40,896 bases of DNA, taken from IMG/VR virus record IMGVR_UViG_3300025324_000004; one strand, 5' to 3'. Source of the stretch: a virus. Under the pieces are notes generated by a model that did not search any database, was not told the origin of the DNA, and saw only the letters and a list, made by a program, of their open reading frames with translations. Shown here one piece after another: positions 3,842 to 33,505 of this stretch. The translations under genes and the position numbers were made by a program. Position 1 is the stretch's first letter. Each line of letters begins with the position of its first letter.

Positions 3842-4339
3842 ATGAGAAGGTTTGCATTCGCTTTTGCGTTTCTCTTTGCCTTCGCATTGGCGACTGGTAA
3901 TGCGCTGGCAAACAACCCGAATAACCCTGAGTCTTACCAGGAGCTTATTACCGTCTACAACAACTCCGGGTCTGCTCTCACTTCCGGAACTGTGGTTATT
4001 TGGGATACGACTGGAACTGCAGGCACTACGCTTGGTGGGTACGTTACAACAACTACTTCTGCCGACAGCAACTTGGCGGCAGGCGTTGTTGTGTCTGATT
4101 CCATCCCGGCTGCGGAAAGGGGAGTTATCTGCACCAAAGGCCCCTGCCAAGTCTTGATGGCTAACTCGACTGATGGAACGGCGGCGGCAGGAACGCCTAT
4201 CGGAACCAGTACGGTTTCCGGTCAGGCTGGTAATGCCGCATCGGACGCACCGATTGTTGGGACTTCGCTCCAAACTTCGGCAGTGTCGTCGGACACTCTC
4301 GTTATTTGGGCGTATATCAATCCTCAGTCGATCCCGTAA
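3842..4339 (+). CDS. Head-decoration-like Thr/Ser/Gly/Ala-rich protein with an N-terminal Sec-type signal peptide
   Basis: Strong SD AAAGGAGG. The N-terminus is MRRFAFAFAFLFAFALATGNALA/NN. The body resembles small beta-rich decoration proteins of the DUF2190 type (from memory). It lies immediately after the capsid gene. Confidence 0.5.
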   Translation: MRRFAFAFAFLFAFALATGNALANNPNNPESYQELITVYNNSGSALTSGTVVIWDTTGTAGTTLGGYVTTTTSADSNLAAGVVVSDSIPAAERGVICTKGPCQVLMANSTDGTAAAGTPIGTSTVSGQAGNAASDAPIVGTSLQTSAVSSDTLVIWAYINPQSIP

Positions 4340-4340
4340 C

Positions 4341-4420
4341 GAGGGAGAGTGGCGGTGGGCGGCAATAGGTTGGTGGCTTGAGGGACGTCACTTGTTGCTG
4401 CCCACTCCCTCAACTTTTCG
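4341..4420 (+). terminator. Long imperfect hairpin followed by CTTTTCGG; candidate rho-independent terminator after the capsid/decoration genes
   Basis: GAGGGAG..GTGGGCGGCAA (4341-4365) pairs with TTGCTGCCCAC-TCCCTC (4394-4410), then the T-tract follows. Confidence 0.5.
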
Positions 4421-4433
4421 GTAAAGGCAATAC

Positions 4434-5564
4434 TTGAAAGCTCTTTACGCTTTGTTTGCATTGATGCCGTTTTTCGCGCTTCCGTTTGCGGCTGATCAAG
4501 GCCGAATTCCTAGAATCGGATTGTTCCTTATTTCCGTAGGTGCGGCGAATCTGCTTGAAATGGCGAAAAGGCCGCTGAGAGTCTATTGGAACCGCGATCT
4601 GGCTCTGTTCTTGGGTTGGCTTGGCATCCTGTGGATATACAGGCTGGCTTGGCCCATGATGTGTTCCAAGTCAATGGTTCTCAATTTCTCTGAGGTCATG
4701 GCCTACTTCAATTTCGCGGCTGCCGTTTCCCTTTTCTGGCTTCTGGCGACACGGACTACGGCTAGAGATTGGGCGAGTCTCAATTTCATTATCCAGGTTA
4801 CAACTCTTGCGATAGCCCTGGTCGGAATCGGCCAAAAATTTGGGCTGTCTCCAATAGAGTTAAACACAAAAATAGGCCCGAATCCGGTCGCCGGATTTTT
4901 CGATAACCCGACTATATTTGGGTCATTCGTAGCGCTTGGAGCCTGCTCAATGCTCTCTTTTGAGGGCATTTTAGGCATTTGGGGCTATCTCATCTGCGGG
5001 ATAGCTATCGCCTTAAGCAATAGCGCGTCCGGGCTTACGGTTTGGTTCCTGGCGCTTGCAGTTCATTGGGTTATTGGCTTTGAGTTCAAAAGAGGAATGA
5101 TTCTTGGACTGTCCGCCTTTTTTGCGTGGTGGTTTCTCTCGCTCAGAGACGGTTTTTTCAGCATCGGAGACCGACTTGTCTATTGGGGATGGGCGAAAGA
5201 CTTGTGGCTTGAAAAATTTTGGTTTGGGTGGGGACTAGGAGCCTATCAGTTAATCGGATCGACCGAAGGCAAGCCCGGTTTTTGGAATAACGGGCATTGG
5301 GCTGCTCAGGCGCATAACGATTATTTGCAGCTTGGAGTCGAGGCCGGAATTATCGGACTCGGCCTTCTCTTTTGGTTCATCTATGGGATTTTGAGGAATT
5401 ACTTCAAAGCTCAGAAACCTGAAATATCTCGCGGCTGGCTTTCAGGATTTGTTGGATTTGGGGCGCTTGCTTTTGTTGGATTCCCGGCCCACCTGCCGAT
5501 GACTGCCATGCTTGGAGTCTTTTATTTAGCAGGCCTTGAATCCGTCGGGAAGCAGAACGGTTAG
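4434..5564 (+). CDS. O-antigen ligase / Wzy_C-family polytopic membrane protein (WaaL/Wzy/PglL-like)
   Basis: Multiple hydrophobic segments. It carries the Wzy_C signature AHNDYLQLGVEAGIIGLGLLFWF. The start is TTG with a weak SD, or alternatively ATG at 4464. Confidence 0.75.
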   Translation: MKALYALFALMPFFALPFAADQGRIPRIGLFLISVGAANLLEMAKRPLRVYWNRDLALFLGWLGILWIYRLAWPMMCSKSMVLNFSEVMAYFNFAAAVSLFWLLATRTTARDWASLNFIIQVTTLAIALVGIGQKFGLSPIELNTKIGPNPVAGFFDNPTIFGSFVALGACSMLSFEGILGIWGYLICGIAIALSNSASGLTVWFLALAVHWVIGFEFKRGMILGLSAFFAWWFLSLRDGFFSIGDRLVYWGWAKDLWLEKFWFGWGLGAYQLIGSTEGKPGFWNNGHWAAQAHNDYLQLGVEAGIIGLGLLFWFIYGILRNYFKAQKPEISRGWLSGFVGFGALAFVGFPAHLPMTAMLGVFYLAGLESVGKQNG

Positions 5565-5583
5565 ATAACTAAAGGGGAGATGT

Positions 5584-5808
5584 ATGCCTATTTTCGTGTC
5601 TCAACATGAAGTCAAAGATAAGTTAGGTCTTGATTGGGATTCGCTCACCAAAGAGCAAAAAGACTATTTTGGAGACGGTACCTGTCCTGACGGATACCCA
5701 ACAGTCGAAGGGTTCAACAAGCGATTCGGTAATAGCGATTCCGTTAATAGCGAAAATCAGGGAGAACCCGCCGTAAAGAAAGCTCAGAAGAAAGGAAGCA
5801 AGAAATGA
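5584..5808 (+). CDS. Hypothetical 74-aa protein
   Basis: SD AAAGGGGAG lies upstream. The stop overlaps the next start (ATGA). Confidence 0.5.
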   Translation: MPIFVSQHEVKDKLGLDWDSLTKEQKDYFGDGTCPDGYPTVEGFNKRFGNSDSVNSENQGEPAVKKAQKKGSKK

Positions 5809-6605
5809 GTCCATCTCTTGATTTCGATCCTAAACTCGTTCTTAAGGTGAATGATCTTAAAAGAGAATACGACTCTCTCAACAAAGCCATTATTGACTTG
5901 AGGGACCGCAAAAAAAAGGAAGAGCAAACCGAAAACGACGAACTCAAAAGGTCGCTCAGAGAATTCAATGCAAGACGCAGAGAAGAGGAACAGACATACG
6001 CGAAAAAGATGAGGGAGTTTTCAGACGCTCAGGCTCTTTTGGACAAGAGAATAAAATCCGTTGAAAAGCTGGAACTCCAGCGAAACGAGCTTGCCGAAAA
6101 GGAGAAAACGGTCAATCTTTTCGCTGTTCAGGTAGAGAAGCGCCGCCATGAATTGAATGAGAGAGAGCGGGTTTTGGGTAATCGGGAAAACGAAGTTGCC
6201 TCCAAGCTCGATCATGCGGCCAAACTCAAGGACGAAACCGAAGTGTTGAGATTGCGGCTTGAGAATGAAAGAAGGGATTTCTCGGCCCAAAAAGCAAAAG
6301 GCGAAGATGAACTCAAGAATGCGAAAGAGACTATTGATTATATGCTCAAGTTGCAGAATCAGGTTTCAGACCAATTAAGAGAAGCAAATACCAAAAGCGA
6401 TGAATCCCAAAAGCAGCTTAAGGAAGCAAAAGAGGCTTTGGATAAAGCGAATGAGAAAGAAGCCGAGGCCAAATCTCTTTTTGAGAAGGCGGTTGAATAC
6501 AAAAGGAATGCCGACAATATCAAAATTCTATATGAGAGAAAAGAACGCGATCTTGAAACAAAAAAGACGCAATTTGATCTGAAGCAATTAAAAGGGGAGA
6601 AATAA
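5805..6605 (+). CDS. K/E-rich coiled-coil protein (266 aa)
   Basis: ATGA coupling to the upstream ORF. The heptad-like charged composition runs throughout. Confidence 0.6.
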   Translation: MSPSLDFDPKLVLKVNDLKREYDSLNKAIIDLRDRKKKEEQTENDELKRSLREFNARRREEEQTYAKKMREFSDAQALLDKRIKSVEKLELQRNELAEKEKTVNLFAVQVEKRRHELNERERVLGNRENEVASKLDHAAKLKDETEVLRLRLENERRDFSAQKAKGEDELKNAKETIDYMLKLQNQVSDQLREANTKSDESQKQLKEAKEALDKANEKEAEAKSLFEKAVEYKRNADNIKILYERKERDLETKKTQFDLKQLKGEK

Positions 6606-6608
6606 TAG

Positions 6609-6983
6609 ATGGCTGGAAACCAACCCCCGGCAATTATTGGAGACCCTAGAAACGCCGGTCTGCCCACTATTCCAGGCAGGGAAATCGGGCCTGCTTCTGC
6701 GAGAACTGTCACTATCGGCACTGCTCCGACTCAGTTGGTTATCGGGGCAGGCAAATATCATATCGACCTGCATTATGCGACTTCCACAGTTAGGGGTGGG
6801 AATACGGACAACTATCTTAAATACGGCGGGAGCGATTGCGATAGTGGCGGGGCCGGCATTCTCTATCAGGGCCAGACTTTTCAATATCGAAACGTGACCA
6901 GCGACTTTTCGATTTATCTTGCCTCTTTAACAGGCGACATGACATTGGATGTGATCGAATATGAAACCACTCCAGAAACTTAA
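6609..6983 (+). CDS. Hypothetical structural-module protein (124 aa)
   Basis: SD AAAGGGGAG lies upstream. It is in the operon and overlaps the next gene by 23 nt. Confidence 0.5.
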   Translation: MAGNQPPAIIGDPRNAGLPTIPGREIGPASARTVTIGTAPTQLVIGAGKYHIDLHYATSTVRGGNTDNYLKYGGSDCDSGGAGILYQGQTFQYRNVTSDFSIYLASLTGDMTLDVIEYETTPET

Positions 6984-9900
6984 GACTTGGCTTTATAGTT
7001 TATCGGTTTTCTTTTTTGCGACTGCTGTTTGTTTTGCTCAAGTAGTCAATCCTCCTCTTAGAGTGAGAGAGGACGACGGTTCGCCGGATGCTCAACCTGT
7101 GTTCGATGTGATCGTACCGGCAGGGCATCTGCTACAAACAGGAACAACAGTCGAACTATACGACCTTGGGACCGCTTCGGGAGGTTCAACCACATTATCC
7201 GGGTTGAGCGACACCAATATTTCTGCGCTTGCTTCAGGCCATATTCTTATCTATGACGGGACCGACAGTTGGGACAATAAAACAATGTCCGGGGATGTGG
7301 CGATCACTTCCGCAGGCGCAACGACTATTCAAGCAAATTCGGTTGCTCTTACAACAGACACTACTGGGAATTATGTGGCATCGGTCGCAAATGGGACAAG
7401 CATAACCGGCGGGGCTGCCGGTTCTGAGGGGGCTGCGCTTACTTTAGATGTCGCAGACGATTCTATAGACGGGACTGAACTGGATGATTCAATCACTTTA
7501 GACGCCGCGACTCTTGTTTTCAATGATGGGGCAAACACCTTACTTACTATTACTGATGCCGGGACTACGGGGGATCTCACGGCGACAGGGACAATAGAAG
7601 GAGCGACTCTGACCGAAGGCGGTGCAACAGTTTTTAACTCAGGAGAAACTCCAGGCGGTGAACTTGGCGGGACTTGGGCTTCTCCGACGGTAGATGACAC
7701 TTTGGCTGTAACCGATTGGAATCTCACGACTCCGACCATTACGACCCAGTTCACATTAACGGCTCAAGCTACTCCTCTGACCGATGCCGATGGCGAGGTG
7801 GCGTTAGACACAGACGGATGGGGGACCGGGTTTGACGCATATGAGGTATTCAATGGAACGGCGTCAGCTTACCTGGTAGCTACCACGGCCTCAGACGTTC
7901 CTTCAAACGGGCAAGTCCCTCAGTTCAATACGGGTGGTTCGATTACTTGGGAAACGGTCGCGGCTGGGGCGGGAGGAGCTACTACTGAGATACAGTTTAA
8001 TAACGCGGGGGTTTTAGATGGAGATGCGGGCCTGACTTGGGATGATACCAATAAAGTTGTGGGGATAACTTCAACCGTCGATAATTCTCCGATTAATATA
8101 ACTCATACCGAAACTGGAAGCACCACGGCGGCTACCATTGCTGCAAGTGGAGATACGGCGGGAGATGGGTTTATGGGAGCTTCCATCAGTGGAGATACTT
8201 TTTCGAGATTCAGATTTTTATATGACGGAACAATGACTGTGGGGCCTGGGAGTGCAGCAAGAGATGTGAGGCTATATCGTAGTGACACAAAAATTTTTAC
8301 CATTGATGATACGGCTGGTGCAGCGGCTACTTTAGCGGTCATTGGGGAGATTGATATATCAAATGCGGCAGCTGGGGCCGGAACTCTGAAAATTCTAGAG
8401 GACACGGATAACGGAATCAATTATACAACGATAACAGTGCCGGCTTTAGCTGGGAATGTTGCATATACTTTGCCACCTGATGATGGAGATGCGGGTGAAC
8501 AATTACAGACTGACGGATCAGGAATTTTAACATGGGAATCCGCAGGAGGAAGTGGCGACTCGATTACAGTCAACACGACCGCAGCCACAGACGCCAATTT
8601 CCTAGACAATCTTTACATGGACTGGGGGTTGGATACAGTGGCAGCTCCTGACGATATTACGGCAAAATTCAATTATGCGACCACGCTTGCAGGAAACCCC
8701 GCTTTGTTGGTGGATGAGATTGTTTTGTTTGCGGATGCGATCGGGCCAGGATTTTTATCTGAGGGTTCAACAGCAGACACGAATGAACAACTGTACCGAT
8801 TTCCAGATGTGAATGGGGTGGACACTACCAGCTATTTCATGTTGGATGATACGTCAATCACATCAATAGACGATGCCAGTTTGGAGGTGGCTTCTGGTGT
8901 ATTGAGAAGGGCGGCATTGAGTGGGGATATAACGGCCTCGGCAGGAAGTAACACAACTGCGATTGCTGCGGGAGTTATCGTAGATGCAGACATGGCGAAT
9001 GACGCTTTGGACGCGGACAAAGTAGTTGGAGACGCGACAGACGATGATGATTTGGATTTAGCGGCTGGCGGAACAGGGCAATCTTTGGTCGATCCAGGAG
9101 CAGACGGCATATTTATTTGGGACGACTCAGACACGGGCACTGAATGGAATTTTGCTGTGATTGGGTCAGGACTTTCGTTTGATGGGACGACTCTAACGGC
9201 CACTGGAAGCGCGCCGACTTGGGATGTGATCGGTGACGCCTCTGGAAACGGATCAATCGGATTTGGTGATACTGAGCAGACGATAGTTTCCAGCCAAACA
9301 ACGGGTGATGTGAGTGTTTTGAATATCGATTTCAACCAAATTAACGATGCAGCAGCCACAGATGATGTTGACGTTTTCAGATTGGATTTAACATCTGAAA
9401 GCGAGGATGCAGGTGATACGTTAGACGGGTTTGTTATTAACTATGAAGAAGGAACAGCTAACACCATCCTAGACACTGCTATTACTATCAACAATTCCGA
9501 GACTACGGCTTCTACGTTGACTGATGCTATTCTGGTGACTTCCAGTGGGGTAGACGGCGGAGTGGTTGATGCCATTGACGTTTCAGCGGCGAACATCACA
9601 AACGCTATCAACATAGGCGCAAACAATATCATCACGGGCGCAGCAACCATTGCGAGTACGGAATTAGACCGATTAGACGGGCTGGCTTCAGCAATTATAG
9701 AAGATGATGCCATTGATACAACTGCCGAGCTGGAAACTATACAGGGCAGTGTAAATATTTTGCTTGAAACCGAAATAGACGCTTCCTCAGAACTTTTGGC
9801 ATTGATGGATGATGAAACTGGTACCGGCGTTTTAGTTTTTGGGACTTCGCCTACATTCACAACCGGAATTACCGTTCCTGCCGATTCAATTAGTAACTCT

Positions 9901-10461
9901 GAATTGGATGAAGCGGCCACGTTTACTTGGACGGGTGTTCATGATTTCGGCGGAACATCCAGCGTTGAAATGTTAAATGCCGCCTCTGCCACCATTGACG
10001 CAGACGGTGAGTTCTACCTGGAAACGGATTCAAACAGCATCAATATTCAAGCTGGAGACGGTACCACTATCGCTGCGAATCAAGATGTGGCATTGCCTCT
10101 CATCCAGTCTCGCAATGTTACAATTTTAGAGCCTGATGTTATACAGGTTTTAGTAGATCATGTTCGTTTATTCTGTGTCGATACTTATGATTATCCTAGT
10201 GGTATTAAGATCGTGGCTATTAGGTTAGATGCAGATGTTTCAGCAACAACCACTGTTAACATCGAGGAATGGGATCAGGCAGCGGTATCAGGAGCCACGA
10301 TTGCTACGATTGATTCAATCGCTCTCAGCGGGGCTACTGAAACGACTGAAACGACTATCACAGATTCAGACATCGCTACAGGCGCATATGTGATGGCTGA
10401 TTTGGATACGGCCAATATAAACGAGATGGGAATAACGGTGTGGTTCTATGCGAAAGATTAA
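6961..10461 (+). CDS. Large tail-fibre-like protein (1166 aa) with a signal-peptide-like N-terminus
   Basis: Composition is T/G/A/D-rich. It contains the fibre-type motif YTLPPDDGDAGEQLQTDGSGILTWE. The N-terminus is MKPLQKLKTWLYSLSVFFFATAVCFA/QV. Confidence 0.7.
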   Translation: MKPLQKLKTWLYSLSVFFFATAVCFAQVVNPPLRVREDDGSPDAQPVFDVIVPAGHLLQTGTTVELYDLGTASGGSTTLSGLSDTNISALASGHILIYDGTDSWDNKTMSGDVAITSAGATTIQANSVALTTDTTGNYVASVANGTSITGGAAGSEGAALTLDVADDSIDGTELDDSITLDAATLVFNDGANTLLTITDAGTTGDLTATGTIEGATLTEGGATVFNSGETPGGELGGTWASPTVDDTLAVTDWNLTTPTITTQFTLTAQATPLTDADGEVALDTDGWGTGFDAYEVFNGTASAYLVATTASDVPSNGQVPQFNTGGSITWETVAAGAGGATTEIQFNNAGVLDGDAGLTWDDTNKVVGITSTVDNSPINITHTETGSTTAATIAASGDTAGDGFMGASISGDTFSRFRFLYDGTMTVGPGSAARDVRLYRSDTKIFTIDDTAGAAATLAVIGEIDISNAAAGAGTLKILEDTDNGINYTTITVPALAGNVAYTLPPDDGDAGEQLQTDGSGILTWESAGGSGDSITVNTTAATDANFLDNLYMDWGLDTVAAPDDITAKFNYATTLAGNPALLVDEIVLFADAIGPGFLSEGSTADTNEQLYRFPDVNGVDTTSYFMLDDTSITSIDDASLEVASGVLRRAALSGDITASAGSNTTAIAAGVIVDADMANDALDADKVVGDATDDDDLDLAAGGTGQSLVDPGADGIFIWDDSDTGTEWNFAVIGSGLSFDGTTLTATGSAPTWDVIGDASGNGSIGFGDTEQTIVSSQTTGDVSVLNIDFNQINDAAATDDVDVFRLDLTSESEDAGDTLDGFVINYEEGTANTILDTAITINNSETTASTLTDAILVTSSGVDGGVVDAIDVSAANITNAINIGANNIITGAATIASTELDRLDGLASAIIEDDAIDTTAELETIQGSVNILLETEIDASSELLALMDDETGTGVLVFGTSPTFTTGITVPADSISNSELDEAATFTWTGVHDFGGTSSVEMLNAASATIDADGEFYLETDSNSINIQAGDGTTIAANQDVALPLIQSRNVTILEPDVIQVLVDHVRLFCVDTYDYPSGIKIVAIRLDADVSATTTVNIEEWDQAAVSGATIATIDSIALSGATETTETTITDSDIATGAYVMADLDTANINEMGITVWFYAKD

Positions 10462-11698
10462 TTTTGCTTTAGCTTTATTTCTTTTATTCCAATCTGAAGT
10501 TTTTGCCGCTAAACAGGTTTTTGTGGGAGGAGATAGCTCGAACCCTGCTGCAACTGCTGTTAGATATAACGCGCTCCAGGGGCCTTTCGCGTCTTGGGTA
10601 GCTGATATTGATGATGTTGAATCAATTACTCCATCTGCCGGAACAGTCAGCAATTTTAGAATCAAAGTAGATACGACTCCAACCGGAGCAGAGACATGGA
10701 CGTTTGATCTTTTGCTGGATGGAGCAGCAACCGATTTAAGTATAGTTATCTCTGCCGGAGAAACGGATGAACTTGATACAAGCAGCGTTTCTGTAAGCGC
10801 GGGTCAAGAGATTGTGATTCGATCGACTCCATCCGGCACCCCTGATTTAACCAGCGTTCAATGGGCTTTGGATTTTGAGCCGACCACCACAGACTATTTT
10901 TGGATACTCGGTGGATCTGATGGGACAAATGCTCAAACAAATAGAACAATTCCACTAGGCGGGCATGAGGCTATAGACGGTTCTCCTGTTGATGTGGAGA
11001 TTGTGACTCCGGTTTCAGGAACTTTTAGGAATATGTATATCAGTCTGGAAACAGCGGTCGCGGCTGGAGAATCTTGGACTTTTACTCTTAGGAAGGCAGG
11101 AGTAGCGACAGCGTTAACCCTTACAATCACTGAGGGGTTGACTGAAGGGTCGGACACATCTAATACAGTTGCGGCAGCGGCTGGTGAACGATGGGGTATA
11201 TATATTGAGGAAGTAGCTGTTGGCGGTGTTGGGCCTCCTATTTGCGGGATTGTGTTTGATCCAGACACGACAGGTCAATTTTTGATACCAATGATGGACG
11301 ATAGTTCTCTCGCTTTAGGAGAAACTTTTAATGTTCCATCTGGAATTGGATTAGCTTGGACAGCGACAGAGACTAGTTTTGATCAACTCGCTAATGCGTT
11401 CACCGCTAAAATGATTTATTGCAGTATGACAGTGGCTCCTACTGCTGGAAATAGCCACATTTTAACGTTGAGAACTAACATGACAACTGACACTGCATTG
11501 GCGGTAACTGTAAATGATACGGAAACAAGTGATTCAGTGACAACAGATGTATCTATAAGTGCCGCTGATTTGTTGACACTCAAGCATACAGTCAGCGGCA
11601 CTCCGGCATCAAGCGTCGAGAATCGGATTACCCTTGTTGGAATTGTTCCCGCAGCTGGCGGCGGCCCTAAAAAAGGTGCTGTCATGGTGGTCAATTAG
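10448..11698 (+). CDS. Secreted-type structural-module protein (416 aa)
   Basis: Overlaps the upstream gene by 14 nt. The N-terminus is MRKINFALALFLLFQSEVFA/AK. The body is T/S/A-rich and beta-like. Confidence 0.6.
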   Translation: MRKINFALALFLLFQSEVFAAKQVFVGGDSSNPAATAVRYNALQGPFASWVADIDDVESITPSAGTVSNFRIKVDTTPTGAETWTFDLLLDGAATDLSIVISAGETDELDTSSVSVSAGQEIVIRSTPSGTPDLTSVQWALDFEPTTTDYFWILGGSDGTNAQTNRTIPLGGHEAIDGSPVDVEIVTPVSGTFRNMYISLETAVAAGESWTFTLRKAGVATALTLTITEGLTEGSDTSNTVAAAAGERWGIYIEEVAVGGVGPPICGIVFDPDTTGQFLIPMMDDSSLALGETFNVPSGIGLAWTATETSFDQLANAFTAKMIYCSMTVAPTAGNSHILTLRTNMTTDTALAVTVNDTETSDSVTTDVSISAADLLTLKHTVSGTPASSVENRITLVGIVPAAGGGPKKGAVMVVN

Positions 11699-11706
11699 GA
11701 GATGAA

Positions 11707-12168
11707 ATGATAAATTTATTGGTTTTAATTGTTTCATTAATGCTGAGCACATCAGCTTTAGCCGCTATTCAATCAATTACAATTGATACTTCCACTTGGG
11801 ATCAGCGGCAAAAGAATCTTTTGACCGCAGCTGTCATCAAAGAATCTTATGCGATCAACAACACCATCAAACCACCTATTTCAGTCAATTCGAATACTGG
11901 AGAAGTTGTCTTCCAAGACCCGCCGTTTAATGTTTCTGTTTTGACGACACAGTTAATTTTTAATGCTGTAAATCAAATCATAATTGATTCCACTCAAACG
12001 CCAGACCAAATCAAGGCAGATGAAGTCATAGCTGCTTATAATTTTCTTGAGAAGGTGTTAGCTGCCTACACACAAGTCTTGAAAGCGAAAAACCCCACTT
12101 TGATTGTTTCCAATATGAAGCAAGCAGTGATTGACCAAATGAAAATAAACGAAGGGCTGACTCCGTAA
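11707..12168 (+). CDS. Hypothetical protein with signal peptide (153 aa)
   Basis: SD AGGAG lies upstream. The N-terminus is MINLLVLIVSLMLSTSALA/AI. Confidence 0.55.
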   Translation: MINLLVLIVSLMLSTSALAAIQSITIDTSTWDQRQKNLLTAAVIKESYAINNTIKPPISVNSNTGEVVFQDPPFNVSVLTTQLIFNAVNQIIIDSTQTPDQIKADEVIAAYNFLEKVLAAYTQVLKAKNPTLIVSNMKQAVIDQMKINEGLTP

Positions 12169-12473
12169 TGGGTGCGCCATCTGAAGAAATCTATAAGAAT
12201 CTGCCAAGTATGGTTCAGATGCCACTTGATCAGGTGGTCGATAGATTACAGGACGCGCCGCCTGACGTTGTGGCAAATGCGGTCGATCAGCTTGTGCAAG
12301 GGGCGGGCTACGATCCTGGCTTCTTCCATGATTTTTTCGGGATGTTCGGCAAATATCCGGTTGAAGTAGCAAGCATGGTCGGCTTCGCGGGAGCGGGCGT
12401 GTTGTTCATTTTCAGGAAGAAGGTGCAGACAATTGTTACAGACTATTTAGGGCTGAAGCGAGCTGGGAAATGA
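12168..12473 (+). CDS. Hypothetical protein with a C-terminal hydrophobic segment (101 aa)
   Basis: TAATG overlap with the upstream gene and ATGA overlap with the downstream gene. Confidence 0.5.
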   Translation: MGAPSEEIYKNLPSMVQMPLDQVVDRLQDAPPDVVANAVDQLVQGAGYDPGFFHDFFGMFGKYPVEVASMVGFAGAGVLFIFRKKVQTIVTDYLGLKRAGK

Positions 12474-12736
12474 TTGAAAATAAGACGAACGTAGCAGTGA
12501 ATGTGGTTGTTGGAGTTCTTGTCCCTCTTTGTCTTATTTATTTGAGTACGGTAACTACTTTTGGAGTGAAGACGATTTCCAGCATGGAAAAACAATTAAG
12601 CAATTTGACTGTTAAGGTAGAAACTTTAACGGAATGGTCAATCGAAAACAAGAAAGACAACGAGCGGCAGGACAAAGAAATTGACCGATTGGAGAGGCTG
12701 AAATTTTCCAACTTTGCACCTCATGTCGGCGGATGA
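12470..12736 (+). CDS. Small single-pass membrane protein (88 aa)
   Basis: ATGA coupling. The N-terminal TM segment is VAVNVVVGVLVPLCLIYL. Confidence 0.5.
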   Translation: MIENKTNVAVNVVVGVLVPLCLIYLSTVTTFGVKTISSMEKQLSNLTVKVETLTEWSIENKKDNERQDKEIDRLERLKFSNFAPHVGG

Positions 12737-13145
12737 TGGAAGTCGCTCCGAAGTAGAGAAACTGATGAGCCACCAGATTCTAAATCAGAACTCGGAACAT
12801 ATTATTTATTCCAGGGAATTGGCTCCTGGAGTATTCACGATCTGGTATGAAAATGGGACTGGAATTTCACGGGGGTGTCTAATTTTGACGGCAAGGGGGG
12901 GTGCGGTCGCGGAAATGCAGATACCGCTTCAGAGCTTGCCAATGAACAAATTTTTGGTATGGAAACAGGAGACGGAAAATTTTTGCAGAAACCACGGATG
13001 GGATTTGGTGTATGGATATACGGTTAAGGCGCTTGGGGATTTTTTGATTTTATCCGATCCAAGAGTGTTTTGGACGGACGAGGAAATTTCGGTCGGCCCG
13101 AATTACAAAAGGAAACTGGTTTGGGATTTAAACAAGAGTTTATAG
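12723..13145 (+). CDS. Hypothetical protein (140 aa from the ATG; the ORF track starts at TTG 12714)
   Basis: In-operon ORF. The start is uncertain and there is no clear SD. Confidence 0.45.
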   Translation: MSADDGSRSEVEKLMSHQILNQNSEHIIYSRELAPGVFTIWYENGTGISRGCLILTARGGAVAEMQIPLQSLPMNKFLVWKQETENFCRNHGWDLVYGYTVKALGDFLILSDPRVFWTDEEISVGPNYKRKLVWDLNKSL

Positions 13146-13167
13146 GTTGACTAAATTTGGTCAACCT
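13144..13167 (+). terminator. 8-bp perfect hairpin AGGTTGAC-N8-GTCAACCT just after the stop at 13145; weak terminator candidate
   Basis: Read directly. The T-tract is poor (ttgtaatt). It is followed by two copies of attgtaaacct at 13179 and 13201. Confidence 0.3.
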
Positions 13168-13239
13168 TGTAATTCCTTATTGTAAACCTTAAGGATCTAC
13201 ATTGTAAACCTATTGAATCCATTAAGGAAGGTGTAGCCA

Positions 13240-14370
13240 ATGATTCCTACATTGAACGACTTGAGAACAAGTATCCAAAAGAAGATGCAAGACACCTCTT
13301 CCGGGCCGCCGATTGACTACTGGATCAATCAGGGCAAGGACTTGATTGAGGCGTCTTGGCCTTGGCCTTTTCTTAGGCGCAGAGGGACGATTGTGACCGT
13401 TGCCCCTGTGACAGCAGGCGACGCCGATGTGACGAATGGCTCGAAGAACGTCTCTTCGGATAACGGCAGCACTTCATGGGCAGCCGGAGTAGTTGGGAGG
13501 AAGTTCAGGATAGACGGAGAGAACGCTTATTACGATATCGCTACCCGTTCTTCGGCTACGGCTCTTATCCTAGAGCAGGTTTACCAAGGCTCTACTGCTA
13601 CTGATAGCGCCTATAGCATCTTCCAAAACGAATACAAGCTGCCTCCTGACATGATCGCGCCAAAAAGCCTTGTAACCATGAATAAGCCTGTAAAGTTGAC
13701 ATGGGTTACTCTCGGCCTGTTCGATGAGAAATTCCCATCTCCCGAAGATACGGGCGAGCCGGATTATTCGGTTCTCCTGGGGCGAGAGAATGATATCTAT
13801 GAGACAGGGACGATCTCGGCAACTGTCAATACAAGCATCATGACTGGGAGCGGCACTTCTTGGCTGAGTGTCGAGGGGCTTGCGAGAGGGTCAAAGATCA
13901 CGGTTGGAGAAAATGTTTACATGATTAAATCGGTCGATTCGGACACTCAAATCACCGTGTATCAAAATATCGCAGCGACCATCTCATCCGGAACTTCTTA
14001 CACCATCCATCTTGATAACTGGATTGTCCTTCTGCATGACATCCCTGATGCGGTTTATAACCTCCCGTTTAGGTATCAGGGGCATACTCCGCCGATGGTA
14101 GATGATCAGGACTTGCTGATTTGCTGGCCTGAAAGCATGGCTGATTTGCTTGAACTCTACGGAGATATAAAGGCTTCTGATTTCAACCATGACTACAACA
14201 GGATGGATAGAAGCGAGAAACGATTTGCTCTGAGACTTTTGGAAGCGCAGAGAGATCATGGGAAAGGCGCGCTTGAGCAAGTAACTGTTTTGAGGTCAAC
14301 CGACGATCTGAAATTAGGCAGAAGGGCAGTTCGGTTCCCTTCTGAATATCCTCTACCTTGGTCAAGATAA
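13240..14370 (+). CDS. Virion structural protein, function unassigned (376 aa)
   Basis: SD AAGGAAGG lies upstream. It is in the tail-module position and has no signal peptide. Confidence 0.6.
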   Translation: MIPTLNDLRTSIQKKMQDTSSGPPIDYWINQGKDLIEASWPWPFLRRRGTIVTVAPVTAGDADVTNGSKNVSSDNGSTSWAAGVVGRKFRIDGENAYYDIATRSSATALILEQVYQGSTATDSAYSIFQNEYKLPPDMIAPKSLVTMNKPVKLTWVTLGLFDEKFPSPEDTGEPDYSVLLGRENDIYETGTISATVNTSIMTGSGTSWLSVEGLARGSKITVGENVYMIKSVDSDTQITVYQNIAATISSGTSYTIHLDNWIVLLHDIPDAVYNLPFRYQGHTPPMVDDQDLLICWPESMADLLELYGDIKASDFNHDYNRMDRSEKRFALRLLEAQRDHGKGALEQVTVLRSTDDLKLGRRAVRFPSEYPLPWSR

Positions 14371-15971
14371 TGAGCAAAGCTCGAAAGAGATTTCTAGCAT
14401 TAGGCGTAGCCTATTTCGGCTTAGCAGTTTTTCTGATGGCTGGAGTTACGTTTGCTTCCACGCCGAAGGCTAATAAATATGAGTTCTTTAATAATGCGGG
14501 CGGTCTCAACTCGAAGCTGTCTTCGATCTCGATTGACGATGATGAGGCAAGCGACATAAATAATATGTCGTTTTCTCGCGGAGGCTCTATCCAGACGAGA
14601 AGCGGCTACATCAAGTACAACTCGACTGCAATCACCGGCACTCCGTCAATCACAGGGCTTTTTTACAACCGATTCACCGATGGGACCAGGATGCTTCTGG
14701 CCACGACCTCCAACTCCAAGCTCTACAAATCGGAGATGGATGGAACGATGGATGACGTTACAGGTTCATTCAGCCTTCCGTCCGGTCAGGATTCCAGAAC
14801 ATCGTTCACCGTCGGCAGAGACATGGTGTTTATCGGGTTCAGCGATACGGCTCTTAGCCCGATTTGGGTTTCATCGACTGGTGCGGTTGTCTCTCTGGCC
14901 GGTAATCCTCCGGAAGCCAAATACAACAAATTCAACAAGAACGTCCTGTTTTGGGCCAACGGCAACCAAGATGGCACTCTCTATAAATCAAGAGTTTGGT
15001 ATACGCCACTTGGCGATCTAGGCTCTTCAAAGAATGTCGAGAGATATCCAGACGAGTATTTCTTTGATGTCGCTTGGGATGACGGAACGGAAATAACCGC
15101 TCTTTTTACTATCCTGGACACTATTTATATCGGGAAAGATACCTCTATTTGGAGGCTCAGTGGCAGCGACCATGACAGTTTCGTGCTTGAAAGGATGATT
15201 GTAGACACAGGACCGATAGCTCATGAAGTTGTTCAGGTCATTGATAACGTGGCCTATTTCATGGATTCGAAAAACAGGATTGTCTCCTATGATGGAGGCA
15301 TCAAGGTCGTCGATATATCCGACAGAATCGAGACGACTTTAAATGCGCTCAATGAGAACAGAAATATTTATTCGGTCAGTTCGAGATATAACGACGATTA
15401 CCAGATTTCGGTAACTGATGCAGGAGGTTCAACACATGATACGATCTTTTATTACGACACTTTTCAGGACGCTTGGACCATTTACAAAGGTATAGCCGCT
15501 AATGCCATGGCGATTGCGTCAACGGTAAACGATCCGGAAGTTTGGTATACGGGCAATTATGCCGGGAGAATCTATGAACAGGATTCAGGTACAAACGACG
15601 ATGGGACGGCTATTGATTGGTATTACACATCAAAACAATATAGATTCCCTGATGTTTGGGGCAAAAAAACTTTCAGGGCTGTTGATATCACATACAACAC
15701 GGAATCCAATTACAACATCAATGTAGAGCATCGAACAGATTTCGCTTCAACTGGGGTGGCGGTAACTCTTAATCTGAATCCTGGTGGGTCACTGTGGGAC
15801 TCAGGAGTATATGGAACAGCGACATATGGTGGGATTGAAGTGGCAGACGCAGACATTAACGTCAATAATAGTGGGGAGTTTTTCTCCTTAAAAATATGGA
15901 ACGACCAACTAAATCAACCAGCTACTATTCTAGGCTGGAAAATATATGTCGAGCCAATAGAGCGAAGATAG
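14370..15971 (+). CDS. Tail-module protein with signal-peptide-like N-terminus (533 aa from ATG 14370; the track starts at TTG 14358)
   Basis: TAATG overlap with the upstream stop. The N-terminus is MSKARKRFLALGVAYFGLAVFLMAGVTFA/ST. Confidence 0.6.
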   Translation: MSKARKRFLALGVAYFGLAVFLMAGVTFASTPKANKYEFFNNAGGLNSKLSSISIDDDEASDINNMSFSRGGSIQTRSGYIKYNSTAITGTPSITGLFYNRFTDGTRMLLATTSNSKLYKSEMDGTMDDVTGSFSLPSGQDSRTSFTVGRDMVFIGFSDTALSPIWVSSTGAVVSLAGNPPEAKYNKFNKNVLFWANGNQDGTLYKSRVWYTPLGDLGSSKNVERYPDEYFFDVAWDDGTEITALFTILDTIYIGKDTSIWRLSGSDHDSFVLERMIVDTGPIAHEVVQVIDNVAYFMDSKNRIVSYDGGIKVVDISDRIETTLNALNENRNIYSVSSRYNDDYQISVTDAGGSTHDTIFYYDTFQDAWTIYKGIAANAMAIASTVNDPEVWYTGNYAGRIYEQDSGTNDDGTAIDWYYTSKQYRFPDVWGKKTFRAVDITYNTESNYNINVEHRTDFASTGVAVTLNLNPGGSLWDSGVYGTATYGGIEVADADINVNNSGEFFSLKIWNDQLNQPATILGWKIYVEPIERR

Positions 15972-16246
15972 TTTGGGGCGTCTTCTGTTTCCTGTGGTGT
16001 GCAGGATACACCCATGCGGCTAAGATTACGCAGCCTCCGCCTTTGCCCGACGAGCCTGTAGCTGAACAACTTTATCTGAAACAGCTTTATGATAACTTCA
16101 ATAATTTGGAGACCGTCACATACGACCCCAACGGGAACCGGGACGGAGTTCTTGGAGATGTGGTTTACTATCAATCAGGGGCAAACAGATTTCTCAAGGT
16201 TTGCGATGGAGGCACGACATGGTACGAAGTCTCTTTAAGTCTGTAA
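15896..16246 (+). CDS. Small fibre-module protein; start uncertain
   Basis: The only canonical start (ATG 15896) overlaps the upstream gene by 76 nt and lacks an SD. A signal-like segment KIVWGVFCFLWCAGYTHA/AK begins exactly where the upstream gene ends. Confidence 0.4.
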   Translation: MERPTKSTSYYSRLENICRANRAKIVWGVFCFLWCAGYTHAAKITQPPPLPDEPVAEQLYLKQLYDNFNNLETVTYDPNGNRDGVLGDVVYYQSGANRFLKVCDGGTTWYEVSLSL

Positions 16247-17478
16247 TTCCAGCTTCGGTATTAGCCTTTTCGGTATTAGCCTTTTCGGTATTAGTATGGG
16301 CAGTGCCCGACACGCTTATGACTATTGCCCCTTCCGCTCAGTCCGGGACGACTATCACGGCGGCAGATGAAAACGATAGAAATAACGACGTTTCAACGGT
16401 TTATAATGGGCATTCTCATGCCGATATCTCATCAACAAGCGCCAATACGTTTACTATCGGAAACGGAGCTGCAGGGAATAAGGATTATGCGATAAGTGAT
16501 GGCACAAATAGCGCGGCAGTCAGATGGGATGGGACAAATACGCGATGGGAAGTTACCAATGACGGCTCGACTTATTTGAGTCTTGTTACAACGACCGGCA
16601 CGACCACAACATTCAATACATTACCGAATTCGGCTTCTGCGAACACTATTTTGTATTCAGACGGAAATTCATGGAATGCAGGAACAGACAGGGTTGCTGA
16701 TTTAGCTACAGGCGCAGGAGAGATCCTTTATTCGACTGGTGTGGATGCTTTGGCTGTATTAGCTGCTGGAACATCCGGGCAAGTTCTTCAAAGCAATGGA
16801 GCCGCCGCTCCATCATGGGTTGATTCAAGTGATCCTACGGATTACGTTACTTTCTATGAAGAATTCCTTACTTCAGATGAGGCTTCTACCGGCGCGGCGA
16901 GAATGATCCGGTCTCAATATGCTTGGCGTGTAAGAGGGAAGGCTATAACCGGCACTTATGATGATAATGGCCTTTGGGAGATTGATGGTGACGCGGCAGC
17001 TGATGTAGGAGAGATGTTCCTATCGAATGGGGGAACCGCTACAACAGATATCGCTCTTCCATTCAAAGCGTCCCTTAATCCGACCGTCATTATAAATTGG
17101 AGAAATGATAATGGTTCTGCGAGTGGGGCAAATTGCTATTTAGGTCTTTTCAGCGATTTTACAAGCGCAGCGGCCCCTACAAACGGCGTTTATTTTAATT
17201 GGGATGGTAATTCTAGAGATATCAACTTGATTACTAATGCAGCCGGGATCACCACAACTGATACGCTTGTTAATTCTGACACAGCAACATCCCACACATT
17301 TAAATTGGTGTTTACCGACACTACCAACATAGCTCTTACTGTTGATGGAGGTTCAGTTATAAACATCACGGCAAATATTCCAAGCGACGATTTGGGGATT
17401 GCCTTTACCGGGCCAAACAGCACCGCTAATCGCGGAGTTATCATCGACTACATCTATGTAAAGCAAAATAGGAGTTAG
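16219..17478 (+). CDS. Tail-fibre-like protein with signal peptide (419 aa from ATG 16219)
   Basis: GGAGG lies 6 nt upstream of ATG 16219. The N-terminus is MVRSLFKSVIPASVLAFSVLAFSVLVWA/VP. The body is T/G/A/N-rich. Confidence 0.6.
   Translation: MVRSLFKSVIPASVLAFSVLAFSVLVWAVPDTLMTIAPSAQSGTTITAADENDRNNDVSTVYNGHSHADISSTSANTFTIGNGAAGNKDYAISDGTNSAAVRWDGTNTRWEVTNDGSTYLSLVTTTGTTTTFNTLPNSASANTILYSDGNSWNAGTDRVADLATGAGEILYSTGVDALAVLAAGTSGQVLQSNGAAAPSWVDSSDPTDYVTFYEEFLTSDEASTGAARMIRSQYAWRVRGKAITGTYDDNGLWEIDGDAAADVGEMFLSNGGTATTDIALPFKASLNPTVIINWRNDNGSASGANCYLGLFSDFTSAAAPTNGVYFNWDGNSRDINLITNAAGITTTDTLVNSDTATSHTFKLVFTDTTNIALTVDGGSVINITANIPSDDLGIAFTGPNSTANRGVIIDYIYVKQNRS
16254..16294. repeat. 15-bp tandem repeat (ttcggtattagcctt) x about 3 inside the signal-peptide coding region
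   Basis: Read directly. ttcggtattag occurs at 16254, 16269 and 16284. It encodes SVLAF-SVLAF-SVLV. Confidence 0.9.
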
Positions 17479-19580: not shown

Positions 19581-19583
19581 CAA

Positions 19584-33057: not shown

Positions 33058-33238
33058 TTCCGGCCTCCTTCAACATCGGTTTTAAGATCACGCATTCTTT
33101 TGCGCCTTTCTTGGCCCAACAGATAAAGCAAGCGCAAACAATAAACTTGTCCGGGCTTCTTGGTTCCCAAGCCACATCCGCCGGTAAAGAGCAATGATCG
33201 CAGTTTGGCGGGTAGACTTGTTTTTTATTCAATTTCAT
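33035..33238 (-). CDS. Cys-rich hypothetical protein (67 aa)
   Basis: Operon ORF. Confidence 0.4.
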   Translation of the reverse strand: MKLNKKQVYPPNCDHCSLPADVAWEPRSPDKFIVCACFICWAKKGAKECVILKPMLKEAGNGKPKPI

Positions 33239-33476
33239 TCCTCCAAGTCTTGTTCTTATTGAATCGGGCTTCTATCCAGCCGTTTAGTTTCTGTAAGCCA
33301 TAAAACACAAGTCCAATGGCAAGCCACCAACCTATAAAATTTGACGTAGTTTCCGGATCAGTCTTGAGACAGTAAGCCAGGAATCCGACGGCGCCGACAA
33401 CCAAGATCGGGAGCCAAAACACCATCAGGAAGCCAAGCGCCAGCAAGAAAACAAGGGCAGGAACTAAGATATCCAT
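33225..33476 (-). CDS. Three-TM small membrane protein (83 aa)
   Basis: AGGAG lies 8 nt upstream. It is the first gene after the strong promoter at 33506..33534. Confidence 0.55.
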   Translation of the reverse strand: MDILVPALVFLLALGFLMVFWLPILVVGAVGFLAYCLKTDPETTSNFIGWWLAIGLVFYGLQKLNGWIEARFNKNKTWRNEIE

Positions 33477-33505
33477 TTTTCAGGCTCCTATGTGCACACA
33501 TTAGT

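Follow-up and report, generated by a model that had tools for sequence, protein, structure and literature searches.

Capsid cement or decoration proteins bind to finished capsids, which they can also do in vitro, and to our knowledge none of the known ones carries a signal peptide. The coat proteins of the Inoviridae and Sec-exported or SAR endolysins depend on Sec and signal peptidase of the host, in which they resemble the proteins described here, but the Inoviridae are extruded through the envelope and lack a capsid that is filled in the cytoplasm, and the endolysins are no virion parts. Glycosylated virions of Che8-type mycobacteriophages were reportedly described by Freeman et al. in 2023. 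Two glycosyltransferases are named in mycobacteriophage genome announcements (PMC11256854). The Che8-type phages and the phage analysed here would share a phage-encoded glycosylation function tied to capsid surface proteins, but the former have soluble cytoplasmic glycosyltransferases with cytoplasmic targets, whereas the ligase predicted here would act en bloc and face the periplasm, so that its targets must be exported. In bacteria the tfpO gene lies directly downstream of pilA, the gene of a Sec-exported structural protein. All known O-oligosaccharyltransferases of the PglL, PglS, TfpO and TfpM types share a Wzy_C domain, in which a histidine is essential, and use lipid-linked glycans in the periplasm (PMC9829042). 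No published precedent for exported virion parts of the kind described below was found in tailed phages.

The window, i.e. the whole stretch of 40,896 nucleotides that was analysed, is a complete podovirus genome (a 40.8-kb circle with a 99-bp overlap). In the region 3842-17478, seven genes, each present in a single copy, encode proteins with predicted Sec/signal peptidase I-type signal peptides at their N-termini, as an earlier note on this DNA had pointed out; the signals have the canonical n/h/c layout, canonical -3/-1 residues and a positive-inside topology. The signal calls were made with our own script, using the n-, h- and c-regions and the -3/-1 rule, together with the evolutionary conservation of the feature. 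The genes had been described as consecutive, which is not strictly the case, since they represent 7 of the 15 genes of this region (Table 1) and are interspersed with genes of a polytopic Wzy_C protein, a coiled-coil protein, small proteins, two small single-TM proteins and a signal-less adaptor.

Table 1. Genes of the window discussed in the text; a slash marks the predicted cleavage site.
Product	Position	Strand	Predicted signal peptide	Basis
Major capsid protein	2830..3828	+	none	phrog_9953 major head protein, 1.7e-51; Mx8/Mx9/Brucella Tb-like by tblastn
Capsid cement/decoration precursor	3842..4339	+	3842-3910, 23 aa, ALA/N; MRRFAFAFAFLFAFALATGNALA/N	
Wzy_C (WaaL/PglL/TfpO) superfamily polytopic inner-membrane glycan ligase	4434..5564	+		Pfam PF04932, clade profile
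Coiled-coil protein, no TM segment	5805..6605	+	none	synteny
1166-aa fibre precursor	6961..10461	+	6961-7038, 26 aa, ...FFFATAVCFA/Q	
416-aa exported protein (predicted)	10448..11698	+	10448-10507, ...LFQSEVFA/A	
153-aa exported protein (predicted)	11707..12168	+	11707-11763, ...MLSTSALA/A	
Head-to-tail adaptor	13240..14370	+	none	PF24175 SU10_adaptor, 2.4e-5, below Pfam cutoff
Tail nozzle precursor (tail tubular protein B / P22 gp10 class)	14370..15971	+	14370-14456, 29 aa, ...MAGVTFA/S	
Small post-nozzle protein	15896..16246	+	24-aa basic n-region, h-region residues 25-38, ...WCAGYTHA/A	
419-aa fibre precursor	16219..17478	+	16219-16302, ...FSVLVWA/V	
Three large proteins, presumed internal/ejection	17488..21524	+	no Sec-type signal	position equals that of internal proteins in relatives
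Endolysin, Hydrolase_2	33543-34166	-	Sec-type	PF07486, 5.7e-14
Small multi-TM holin-like protein	33225-33476	-		sequence; lysis pair with endolysin (33225..34166)

All proteins predicted to be on the particle's outer side beyond the adaptor, namely the capsid cement protein, the nozzle, the small post-nozzle protein (kept in relatives) and the two fibres, are precursors with a predicted cleavable Sec-type signal peptide. The predicted divide is clean: the outer parts have an export signal, and none is seen on the inner or shell parts encoded by the same genome (portal, scaffold, capsid protein, adaptor, internal proteins). From its context the major capsid protein would be made in the cytoplasm. 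Two further products, those of 10448 and 11707, bear the signal as well, and a family search with the former gave no match. The Ser+Thr content is higher in the exported proteins (0.19-0.27 in five of the seven versus 0.13-0.18) and their Lys+Arg content is lower than in the comparison proteins. The earlier note had missed the outer/inner split, the Wzy_C ligase gene and the lineage-wide distribution of the trait.

The premise that virion-module proteins bear export signals which are unexpected there proved right. Structure prediction identifies two of the seven, the nozzle and the cement protein, as core components of the virion. The cement gene lies directly 3' of the major capsid gene. The AF2 model of the mature cement protein (pLDDT 85, pTM 0.83) found its top Foldseek matches among the decoration proteins of Pam3, Sf11, HFTV1, TW1, phi29 (gp8.5 base), T1 and lambda (gpD), with TM values of 0.60-0.66 to known decoration proteins; the Pfam Phage_cement_2 match was below the cutoff (18.2 vs 24). 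In predicted fold and post-capsid gene place it is like lambda gpD, TW1 gp56, the phi29 gp8.5 base and the proteins of Pam3 and HFTV1. A loop that is conserved in it, YVTTTTSADSN, may be a patch for O-glycosylation. In case of the nozzle (pLDDT 90.8, pTM 0.90) the best Foldseek match was the Pa223 tail (6.6e-27, TM 0.80), followed by VP1, Pan3, P22 gp10, SU10, Sf6 and T7 gp12, and its profile matches 9k09_U at 2.8e-8. It shares the beta-propeller fold, the single copy and the gene position directly after the adaptor, whose orthologues in relatives are recorded as SU10_adaptor, with the nozzles of T7 (gp12), P22 (gp10), SU10 and Pa223, but differs from them in its predicted cleavable Sec signal; close relatives of it were not found in cultured phages.

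This signal is an N-terminal extra relative to the signal-less nozzle homologues. Both for the nozzle and for the fibre, the start of the homologues without signal is shifted by about 25 residues and coincides with the shared conserved motifs. The motif following the signal of the 16219 fibre aligns to residues 10-39 of signal-less fibres (hhalign 82%, 1.1e-5), and in two orthologues of the 6961 fibre (L004 and L147) the signal peptide is followed by a conserved mature N-terminus, EEDGSPSTFP. The signal peptides are N-terminal additions on otherwise conventional proteins. The objection that starts downstream of the hydrophobic segments might be used was not borne out: no in-frame downstream start backed by a Shine-Dalgarno site was found near any of the seven cleavage sites, in several orthologues an alternative start is absent altogether, and the 15896 ORF has no ATG, GTG or TTG between codons 8 and 49. 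None of the seven genes has a predicted usable downstream start. The assigned starts have strong Shine-Dalgarno sites upstream of 3842 (GGAGG), 11707 (AGGAG) and 16219 (GGAGG), the 14370 start overlaps the adaptor stop codon (TAATG), and those of 6961 and 10448 overlap the ends of their upstream genes.

A survey of related phages, which the earlier note had proposed, revealed the same pattern in at least 14 uncultured relatives, which stem from groundwater and from hadal sediment and span GC contents of 32 to 56%. The signals are conserved despite the diverged sequence in 12 loci (L001, L002, L004, L062, L066, L147, L150, L173, L185, L189, L192 and L199; GC 0.32 to 0.56). Using one heuristic for all loci, 35 of the 67 ORFs downstream of the capsid gene were signal-like in the clade, versus 27 of 899 in about 90 related phage loci. 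Nozzle homologues had a signal in 6/6 cases within the clade and in 0/96 outside it, in more distant relatives; no signal peptide was seen on the post-capsid proteins of 13 relatives outside the clade. Misassigned starts, N-termini that are hydrophobic by chance or chimerism of the assembly are a hardly credible source of the pattern: the signal calls do come from a home-made heuristic and the 15896 start is uncertain, but ENA, JGI and Logan data gave independent assemblies of this phage, the pattern recurs in more than 14 genomes and in 33/33 cement homologues, the starts have Shine-Dalgarno sites or stop-start coupling, and the genome is a complete circle.

The product of the gene next to the cement gene matches Pfam PF04932 (5.2e-10, 39.7 bits, cutoff 31.7). 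The ligase is highly divergent (21-24% identity even inside the clade); R247 (5172-5174) and H294 with N295 (5313-5318) in its large loop are invariant. Among solved structures the clade profile matches a single one, 7tpg, the WaaL of Cupriavidus metallidurans (8.6e-7), with the periplasmic-loop motifs R..W and AHND aligned. Like PglL, PglS, TfpM and TfpO of Pseudomonas, Neisseria and Acinetobacter, which use Und-PP-linked glycans, it is an inner-membrane Wzy_C enzyme. WaaL transfers glycan to lipid A-core, whereas the gene context of the present ligase points to a protein as a possible acceptor. The cement-ligase pair resembles the pilA-tfpO gene order, but it is phage-encoded, part of a late structural operon, and its presumed substrate is a capsid cement protein. 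Protein-directed glycosylation by this ligase is putative.

We give an even chance to a model, built on the sequence, in which the heads would be made in the cytoplasm, while the nozzle, the fibres and the cement protein would pass into the periplasm for processing and, probably, O-glycosylation, heads and outer parts joining when the inner membrane is breached at lysis. After Sec export and cleavage by signal peptidase I the outer parts would fold in the periplasm where, as a further guess, nozzle and fibres may be pre-assembled as a tail. The ligase, its catalytic loop on the periplasmic side, would transfer an Und-PP-linked host glycan to the cement protein and possibly to other exported parts. 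DNA-filled heads with the adaptor, the proposed boundary between cytoplasmic and periplasmic sub-assembly, would wait in the cytoplasm until a holin opens the inner membrane and they can meet the periplasmic parts while the outer membrane is still closed. Spontaneous binding of the tail and the cement protein to the heads, as known in vitro for tailspikes and decoration proteins, would come next, and then cell lysis. The endolysin/holin-like pair is a candidate means to breach the inner membrane. One point against the model is that endolysins of the Sec-exported or SAR type often come with a pinholin, through whose small holes capsids would not fit. Another is that P22-like phages depend on the gp10-class hub for the retention of DNA in the head, so nozzle-less waiting heads would need another plug; no alternative head plug was identified in the genome of the window. 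The endolysin likewise bears a Sec signal, which was counted as support for the export model.

The three explanations offered in the earlier note were supported in part. Periplasmic maturation with joining at lysis is favoured by the positive-inside topology, the conserved signal peptidase I sites and the cement-linked, periplasm-side ligase, while uncleaved inner-membrane anchors are disfavoured. For the nozzle and the cement protein a secreted adhesin set could be discarded, since their predicted folds match solved podovirus nozzles and capsid decoration proteins and they are the sole copies in a complete genome.

It appears unlikely that the ligase has nothing to do with the signals and modifies the LPS or a polysaccharide of the host in the manner of an O-antigen ligase or polymerase, serving seroconversion or release, the export having a cause of its own, e.g. 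that tail parts are kept apart, up to lysis, from the heads or from immune sensors of the cytoplasm. Lipid A-core and O-units are the substrates of WaaL and Wzy and D3-type phage Wzy enzymes are known, which speaks for this reading, as does the fact that no PglL-specific domain was found; nor was an NCBIfam match or a known sequon. One relative, L153, likewise agrees with it, having signals on nozzle and fibres, a cement protein without signal and no Wzy_C gene; ligase glycosylation is therefore not the sole reason for tail export. What argues against the separation is the gene order. The cement profile found 36 metagenome loci; in 23 of them the ligase gene directly follows the signal-bearing cement gene, and 11 of the other 13 end less than 500 nt past the cement gene, i.e. 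the order holds in 23 of the 25 loci having more than 500 nt of downstream sequence. It is kept in 7/7 fetched relatives with a signal-bearing cement gene, and in the distant L150 too. The ligase always lies within the late structural operon; it is absent from every other capsid-homologue locus (147 surveyed) and wherever the cement protein has no signal peptide. The association may stem largely from shared ancestry. In six relatives (L001, L002, L004, L062, L066 and L147) the ligase gene is followed by the coiled-coil gene, whose product gave no match in a family search.

Quite unlikely, too, is the possibility that the hydrophobic N-termini hold the nozzle, the fibres and the cement protein at the inner membrane for the last assembly steps, the bulk of the proteins being reachable by cytoplasmic heads and the segments uncleaved or removed late. 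Prohead assembly of T4 is membrane-associated, and the h-regions of the window's nozzle and 16219 fibre, with about 19-20 residues, are possible anchors; in most orthologues, however, the h-regions are short (10-14 residues). Positive n-regions followed by acidic, Lys/Arg-poor mature parts indicate an N-in/C-out topology, i.e. export, and the linked ligase works on the periplasmic face. The cement protein has 33 homologues in the databases, all with a signal (20-28 aa, n-region +1 to +3, called with our own heuristic) that has Ala at -1 and A, V or S at -3, and nearly all nozzle signals have A, G or S at -1. This conservation of the -1 residue argues for selection for cleavage by signal peptidase I, the active site of which is periplasmic.

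We consider it decidedly improbable that the exported pool has an envelope job of its own, such as blocking or destroying the receptor from inside, preventing re-adsorption of the progeny to debris or superinfection exclusion, and that virions are built from a fraction escaping export late in infection. Fibres bind cell-surface structures and exported phage-encoded exclusion proteins are common, but it is not obvious what a nozzle hub and a capsid cement protein would do in the envelope, signal-less isoforms cannot be made, and the trait is found on all outer parts and on no inner part. Furthermore, an uncleaved signal would stay beside the fibre and nozzle motifs, which lie just past the cleavage site, where the signal-less homologues start.

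Returning to the export model, the ligase gene adjacent to the cement gene suggests the periplasm, not the cytoplasm, as the place where the virion exterior is made and probably glycosylated; the export-signal trait defines a whole lineage.

The N-termini that the earlier note had quoted as Sec-type signal peptides, those of the ORFs starting at 3842, 6961, 10448, 11707, 14370, 15896 and 16219, were all confirmed in the sequence. The basic n-region claimed for each of them was found in six (net charge +2 to +4) and is missing in the 11707 protein, and the genes are not strictly consecutive, as had been stated, but make up seven of the 15 genes of the interval 3842-17478. The h-regions of all seven are uncharged, with maximum 8-residue Kyte-Doolittle means of 2.5-3.4, and those of the orthologues are alike. 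The predicted cleavage sites (slash) are ALA/N (3842), CFA/Q (6961), VFA/A (10448), ALA/A (11707), TFA/S (14370), THA/A (15896) and VWA/V (16219); in all seven, positions -1 and -3 are occupied by small neutral residues, and Pro never follows at +1. No lipobox was found among these signals, whereas L189 encodes a separate small lipoprotein (LSGC). An RR pair, as in Tat signals, is present only in 3842 and a few orthologues, most having KK or a single K, and the h-regions are very hydrophobic. A Tat or lipoprotein nature of the signals is not supported by the sequence data.

The start codons of the signal-bearing genes are credible. A Shine-Dalgarno sequence (GGAGG or AGGAG) lies upstream of 3842, 11707 and 16219, the start at 14370 overlaps the adaptor stop codon (TAATG), and the starts at 6961 and 10448 overlap the 3' ends of the preceding genes. 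Translation from start codons downstream of the hydrophobic segments, allowed for in the earlier note, finds no counterpart in the sequence, where no in-frame start backed by a Shine-Dalgarno sequence occurs near any cleavage site. Dual-start isoforms were rejected on the same ground, and several orthologues lack any alternative start. In the 15896 ORF ATG, GTG and TTG are absent between codons 8 and 49, thus its hydrophobic segment is always translated. Each of the seven proteins is single-copy, with no signal-less paralogue elsewhere in the complete genome. The predicted signals are of canonical type, are conserved and cannot be bypassed in translation; it is the outer parts of the virion that bear them, the inner parts having none.

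The protein encoded at 14370-15971 is predicted to be the tail nozzle (tail tubular protein B / P22 gp10). Its gene is directly 3' of the adaptor gene, and the profile built from it and its relatives matches 'Tail tubular protein B' of cyanophage A4 (9k09_U, 2.8e-8). The AlphaFold2 model of the mature protein (pLDDT 90.8, pTM 0.90) matches solved podovirus nozzles in Foldseek, the Pa223 tail being the best (6.6e-27, TM 0.80), followed by VP1, Pan3, P22 gp10, SU10, Sf6 and T7 gp12. Export for the formation of disulfide bonds was considered for the nozzles and rejected: even cysteine counts were at 0.54 in the signal-bearing and 0.47 in the signal-less ones, which is no excess, and the nozzle of the window contains no cysteine at all.

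A decoration fold, suspected earlier for one of the proteins, was borne out for the 3842 product by its AlphaFold2 model (33-sequence alignment, pLDDT 85, pTM 0.83). In Foldseek the model matches Pam3, Sf11, HFTV1, TW1 gp56 and the phi29 gp8.5 head-fibre base (E 6e-5 to 1e-3, TM 0.57-0.66) and also the T1 and lambda gpD decoration proteins; the gene is directly 3' of the capsid gene, and its product is predicted to be a capsid cement protein. Pfam Phage_cement_2 stayed below its cutoff (18.2 bits, cutoff 24), and hhalign with the post-capsid proteins of relatives reached only 72% probability (E 3.3e-5). In view of the folds of nozzle and cement protein, the suggestion that part of the module is a secreted adhesin set instead of virion parts was rejected.

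A search of 5.8 billion proteins gave 33 cement homologues, and every one of them has a signal peptide of 20-28 aa, with Ala at -1, A/V/S at -3 and an n-region charge of +1 to +3. Conservation within the family is highest in two stretches, LTSGxVVxW and [YW][VI][TN]T[TS]T[ST][AV]D[SD]. Since the latter runs in the model from a strand end into a surface coil (loop TTTTSADS in the window), we infer from its position that it may be a glycosylation patch, as a candidate only.

The fibres are assigned with more reserve. The protein starting at 16219 and its orthologues may share the post-signal N-terminal motif of related-phage fibres (hhalign 82% probability, 1.1e-5, over 30 residues), and it is regarded as a putative fibre. 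The 1166-aa protein starting at 6961 gave no family match; its mature N-terminus (EDDGSP...) is common to the long fibres of the relatives L004 and L147, which are also signal-bearing, and it is regarded as a putative long fibre. Within the tail module, two small membrane proteins are encoded at 12168-12736, one having its TM segment at the C-terminus, the other at the N-terminus with a coiled coil behind it. The latter resembles an i-spanin or holin. Comparable small TM proteins are encoded upstream of the adaptor in the loci L153, L156 and L158; they may serve to breach the membrane in connection with assembly.

The nozzles of distant relatives (L005, L063, L064, L051 and others) align over the full length and start about 25 residues later, at F..GGLN; the same relation was found for the fibres and the post-capsid protein. 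The signal peptide is a module added to conventional proteins. The survey of related phages proposed earlier showed that the pattern recurs across a clade: among 147 loci with a capsid homologue retrieved by HMM search, the nozzle carries a signal peptide in 6/6 cases within the clade and in 0/96 outside, and a single heuristic applied to all loci scored 35 of 67 ORFs 3' of the capsid gene as signal-like in the clade versus 27 of 899 elsewhere. In six relatives (L001, L002, L004, L062, L066 and L147; capsid identity 40-44%, GC 0.32-0.56) the capsid gene is followed by those of a signal-bearing cement protein, the Wzy_C ligase, a coiled-coil protein and, further on, the adaptor, a signal-bearing nozzle, a small signal-bearing protein and signal-bearing fibres. 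At the sequence level the signal peptides are not conserved among these phages. The pattern was also present in five more metagenome contigs (L173, L185, L189, L192, L199) and in a more distant IMG/VR contig, L150, which encodes a multi-TM protein homologous to the clade ligase (hhalign 94%, 1.4e-7). As a trait, the pattern marks out a lineage.

A nozzle scan of 1.84 billion representatives gave 1,983 homologues, and 37 of the 148 scored among the best 150 of these, in several groups, bear signal peptides. A neighbour-joining tree of the nozzles gave at least 8 state changes; its branches are long and the tree is weak, therefore it was not relied on for counting independent origins. No cultured phage has a close nozzle relative, and no close relative was found in IMG/VR by single-protein search. 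The IMG/VR profile search returned only relatives of at most 38% identity, and the GTDB scan only distant prophages (mainly of Rhizobium) and MAG contigs, all of them without the trait. The samples are mostly from groundwater (Hainich 0.1-um fraction, Rifle), and L147 is from Challenger Deep sediment.

The product of the gene next to that of the cement protein matches Pfam Wzy_C PF04932 (39.7 bits, cutoff 31.7, E 5.2e-10), and its orthologues are also recorded as Wzy_C. It is polytopic, with 6-9 hydrophobic windows. R247, H294 and N295 are invariant in the clade alignment, and the clade profile matches the WaaL structure 7tpg (8.6e-7) over the loop with R..W and AHND, with which the three residues align. 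A PglL-specific signature was not found, since the protein has no additional Pfam domain (e.g. PglL_A) and five clade members had no NCBIfam match; PADLOC gave nothing on the ligase. With only 3 database homologues at E<=1e-3, the homologue search was uninformative. Linkage was scored in 36 metagenome loci that the cement profile had retrieved. In these loci all cement genes recovered with their N-terminus encode a signal peptide, and a ligase homologue is directly 3' of the cement gene in 23 of the 36. In 11 of the 13 others less than 500 nt remain past the cement gene, and the last two, L180 (821 nt) and L191 (614 nt), would reach only the poorly conserved ligase start. No relative with a signal-less cement protein has the ligase. 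The ligase is intact, and its gene is linked to that of the cement protein.

The known bacterial O-oligosaccharyltransferases (PglL, PglS, TfpO, TfpM) all have the Wzy_C domain with an essential histidine and act in the periplasm on lipid-linked glycans (PMC9829042). The adjacency of the ligase to a protein predicted to be Sec-exported, with a conserved TTTTSADS loop, makes it a candidate protein O-oligosaccharyltransferase, which would transfer Und-PP-linked glycan to Ser/Thr. Other genes around the module were recorded as well. Three genes at 22077-25170 are convergent with the structural module. Their products are a DUF4330 protein that has one TM segment, a glycosyltransferase of family GT4 (Glycos_transf_1, 4e-16) and a membrane protein whose core is transglutaminase-like, and the set may build glycan or modify the envelope and so feed the ligase. 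In L147 (15872-17613) the stretch between long fibre and adaptor contains an APS kinase gene (PF01583, 1.1e-15) and, as a weak match, a GT2-like gene, a hint that glycans may be sulfated or modified in another way. Between the signal-bearing cement and the ligase genes, a small ORF whose product has an N-terminal signal is located in L189 (10090-10329) and L173 (7458-7685), the signal in L189 ending in a canonical lipobox (LLSGC). L156 (7387-8724) and L158 (7342-8769) have a conserved polytopic 8-TM protein upstream of the adaptor, 37% identical and with 'IIDD' near the N-terminus; as GT-C glycosyltransferases these proteins were rejected, having no Pfam match. The nozzles of both loci are without signal; in L158, large fibre proteins that bear signals are encoded as well.

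The window ends in an exact 99-bp direct repeat (1-99 and 40798-40896), thus it represents a complete genome of about 40.8 kb, circular or circularly permuted. Independent assemblies of this phage exist in ENA, JGI and Logan data; the JGI samples (C687J...) are presumably from Rifle groundwater. The capsid protein and the terminase are only 23-33% identical to their nearest phage-collection matches (e.g. Mx8/Mx9, Brucella Tb-like phages and marine podoviruses), and there are no tRNA genes in the window. The N-terminus of the terminase (38052-38200) contains the tandem peptide repeat ELRSHELRSHELRS, and the N-terminal half of the DUF6745 protein is a long run of a (V/E)QQV-type four-residue repeat. 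The two paralogues on the minus strand are identical over 30 residues close to the C-terminus, SETDIGQVIFGKWDNLDNIKFPRISNAMAW, which points to gene conversion or a duplication of recent date. Of the presumed internal proteins, the first opens (17488-17550) with the hydrophobic segment MAFMAAIMPAIISAMSSLVSG, without a basic n-region, followed by RDRKNK; this charge layout is the reverse of that of the Sec signals and is as expected for a membrane-inserting ejection protein.

Main features of the virus genome (coordinates of the window)
Feature	Coordinates	Strand	Remarks
Portal	ends at 1281, spans genome junction	+	up to ~690 codons
Zinc-ribbon protein	between portal and scaffold	+	
Scaffold	1850-2704	+	
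Major capsid protein	2830-3828	+	phrog_9953, 1.7e-51
Region with the signal-bearing proteins	3842-17478	+	
Predicted cement protein	3842-4339		
Wzy_C ligase	4434-5564		
Putative long fibre	6961-10461		1166 aa
Two small membrane proteins	12168-12736	+	101 aa and 88 aa
Adaptor (SU10_adaptor)	13240-14370		without signal
Predicted nozzle	14370-15971		
Putative fibre	16219-17478		
Three large proteins	17488-21524	+	without Sec signals
Convergent genes	22077-25170	-	
DUF6745 protein	27639-28808	-	2.5e-21
Outer-membrane beta-barrel protein (OMP_b-brl)	30044-30646	-	2.6e-8; signal peptide AYA/L; C-terminal Phe
Lysis pair	33225-34166	-	endolysin (Hydrolase_2/SleB-like, 5.7e-14) and 83-aa multi-TM holin-like protein
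Two paralogous genes	34073-34483, 35411-35827	-	136 and 138 aa
Large terminase	38052-39962	+	

The OMP beta-barrel gene and the ligase indicate a diderm host. The endolysin has a Sec-type signal peptide, MRLGACLAMAVCSLAVTAYA/G, and no spanin candidate was identified. In the mechanism that we propose, the outer parts would be exported by Sec, cleaved by SPase I and folded in the periplasm, where nozzle and fibres might pre-assemble and the cement protein, at least, would be O-glycosylated. Heads with the adaptor would wait in the cytoplasm, to be joined by the outer parts once the holin, for which the lysis pair is the candidate, breaches the inner membrane. Tailspikes and decoration proteins can be added in vitro, which makes late joining plausible. 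The weak points are the retention of DNA in nozzle-less heads and the size of the holin lesion, and we regard the mechanism overall as evenly balanced between right and wrong. The fuller claim is that this widespread, uncultured podovirus lineage has a two-compartment assembly: heads would be packaged in the cytoplasm, while cement, nozzle and fibres, all of the outer shell, would be exported by Sec and cleaved, and a PglL/TfpO-like oligosaccharyltransferase of the phage would O-glycosylate them in the periplasm with host lipid-linked glycans, the two halves joining only after the breach of the inner membrane. This claim is more tentative, and we would lean slightly against it as a whole.

Among the alternatives, it is possible that the ligase acts on LPS and not on protein, but the strict adjacency of the ligase and cement genes opposes an LPS target. 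Two further weak points of the proposed mechanism are that the ligase and the signals may occur together as one inherited event and that tail export can exist without the ligase: L153 (3184-5583) has a signal-bearing nozzle and fibres, a cement protein without signal and no Wzy_C gene, a methyltransferase-polysaccharide deacetylase fusion being present in its structural module instead. A dual use of the exported pool would leave the nozzle and the cement protein without a role. Uncleaved anchors tethering the proteins to the membrane without export, offered in the earlier note beside the periplasmic maturation that we prefer, are disfavoured by the topology and the conserved cleavage sites. 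An artefact is excluded by the independent assemblies and the conservation.

Tailed-phage assembly is taught as purely cytoplasmic. No description was found in the literature of Sec signals on tailed-phage capsid, nozzle or fibre proteins, nor of a Wzy_C ligase or oligosaccharyltransferase in a phage structural module, and the absence of a signal peptide has been taken as support for the phage origin of a protein (PMC6199706). The nearest cases are the pilA-tfpO-type substrate/enzyme gene pairs, WaaL, the cytoplasmic glycosylation of mycobacteriophage virions and the Sec-dependent coat proteins of filamentous phages, each of which differs essentially from the system of the window. We rate the finding as genuine, lineage-wide and distant from known systems.

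The lineage is common in groundwater and present in hadal sediment, and annotation filters that discard signal-peptide proteins as 'not virion' would miss such phages. For glyco-engineering, the cement and ligase genes could offer a new and compact combination of substrate and O-oligosaccharyltransferase and, if the model is true, this would be the first periplasmic, en-bloc glycosylation of a phage particle. Passage of nozzle, fibre and cement proteins across the inner membrane would overturn the rule of cytoplasmic assembly and imply head-tail joining timed by lysis. There would then be a Sec-dependent branch of tailed-phage morphogenesis, with virions cloaked in host-type glycan.
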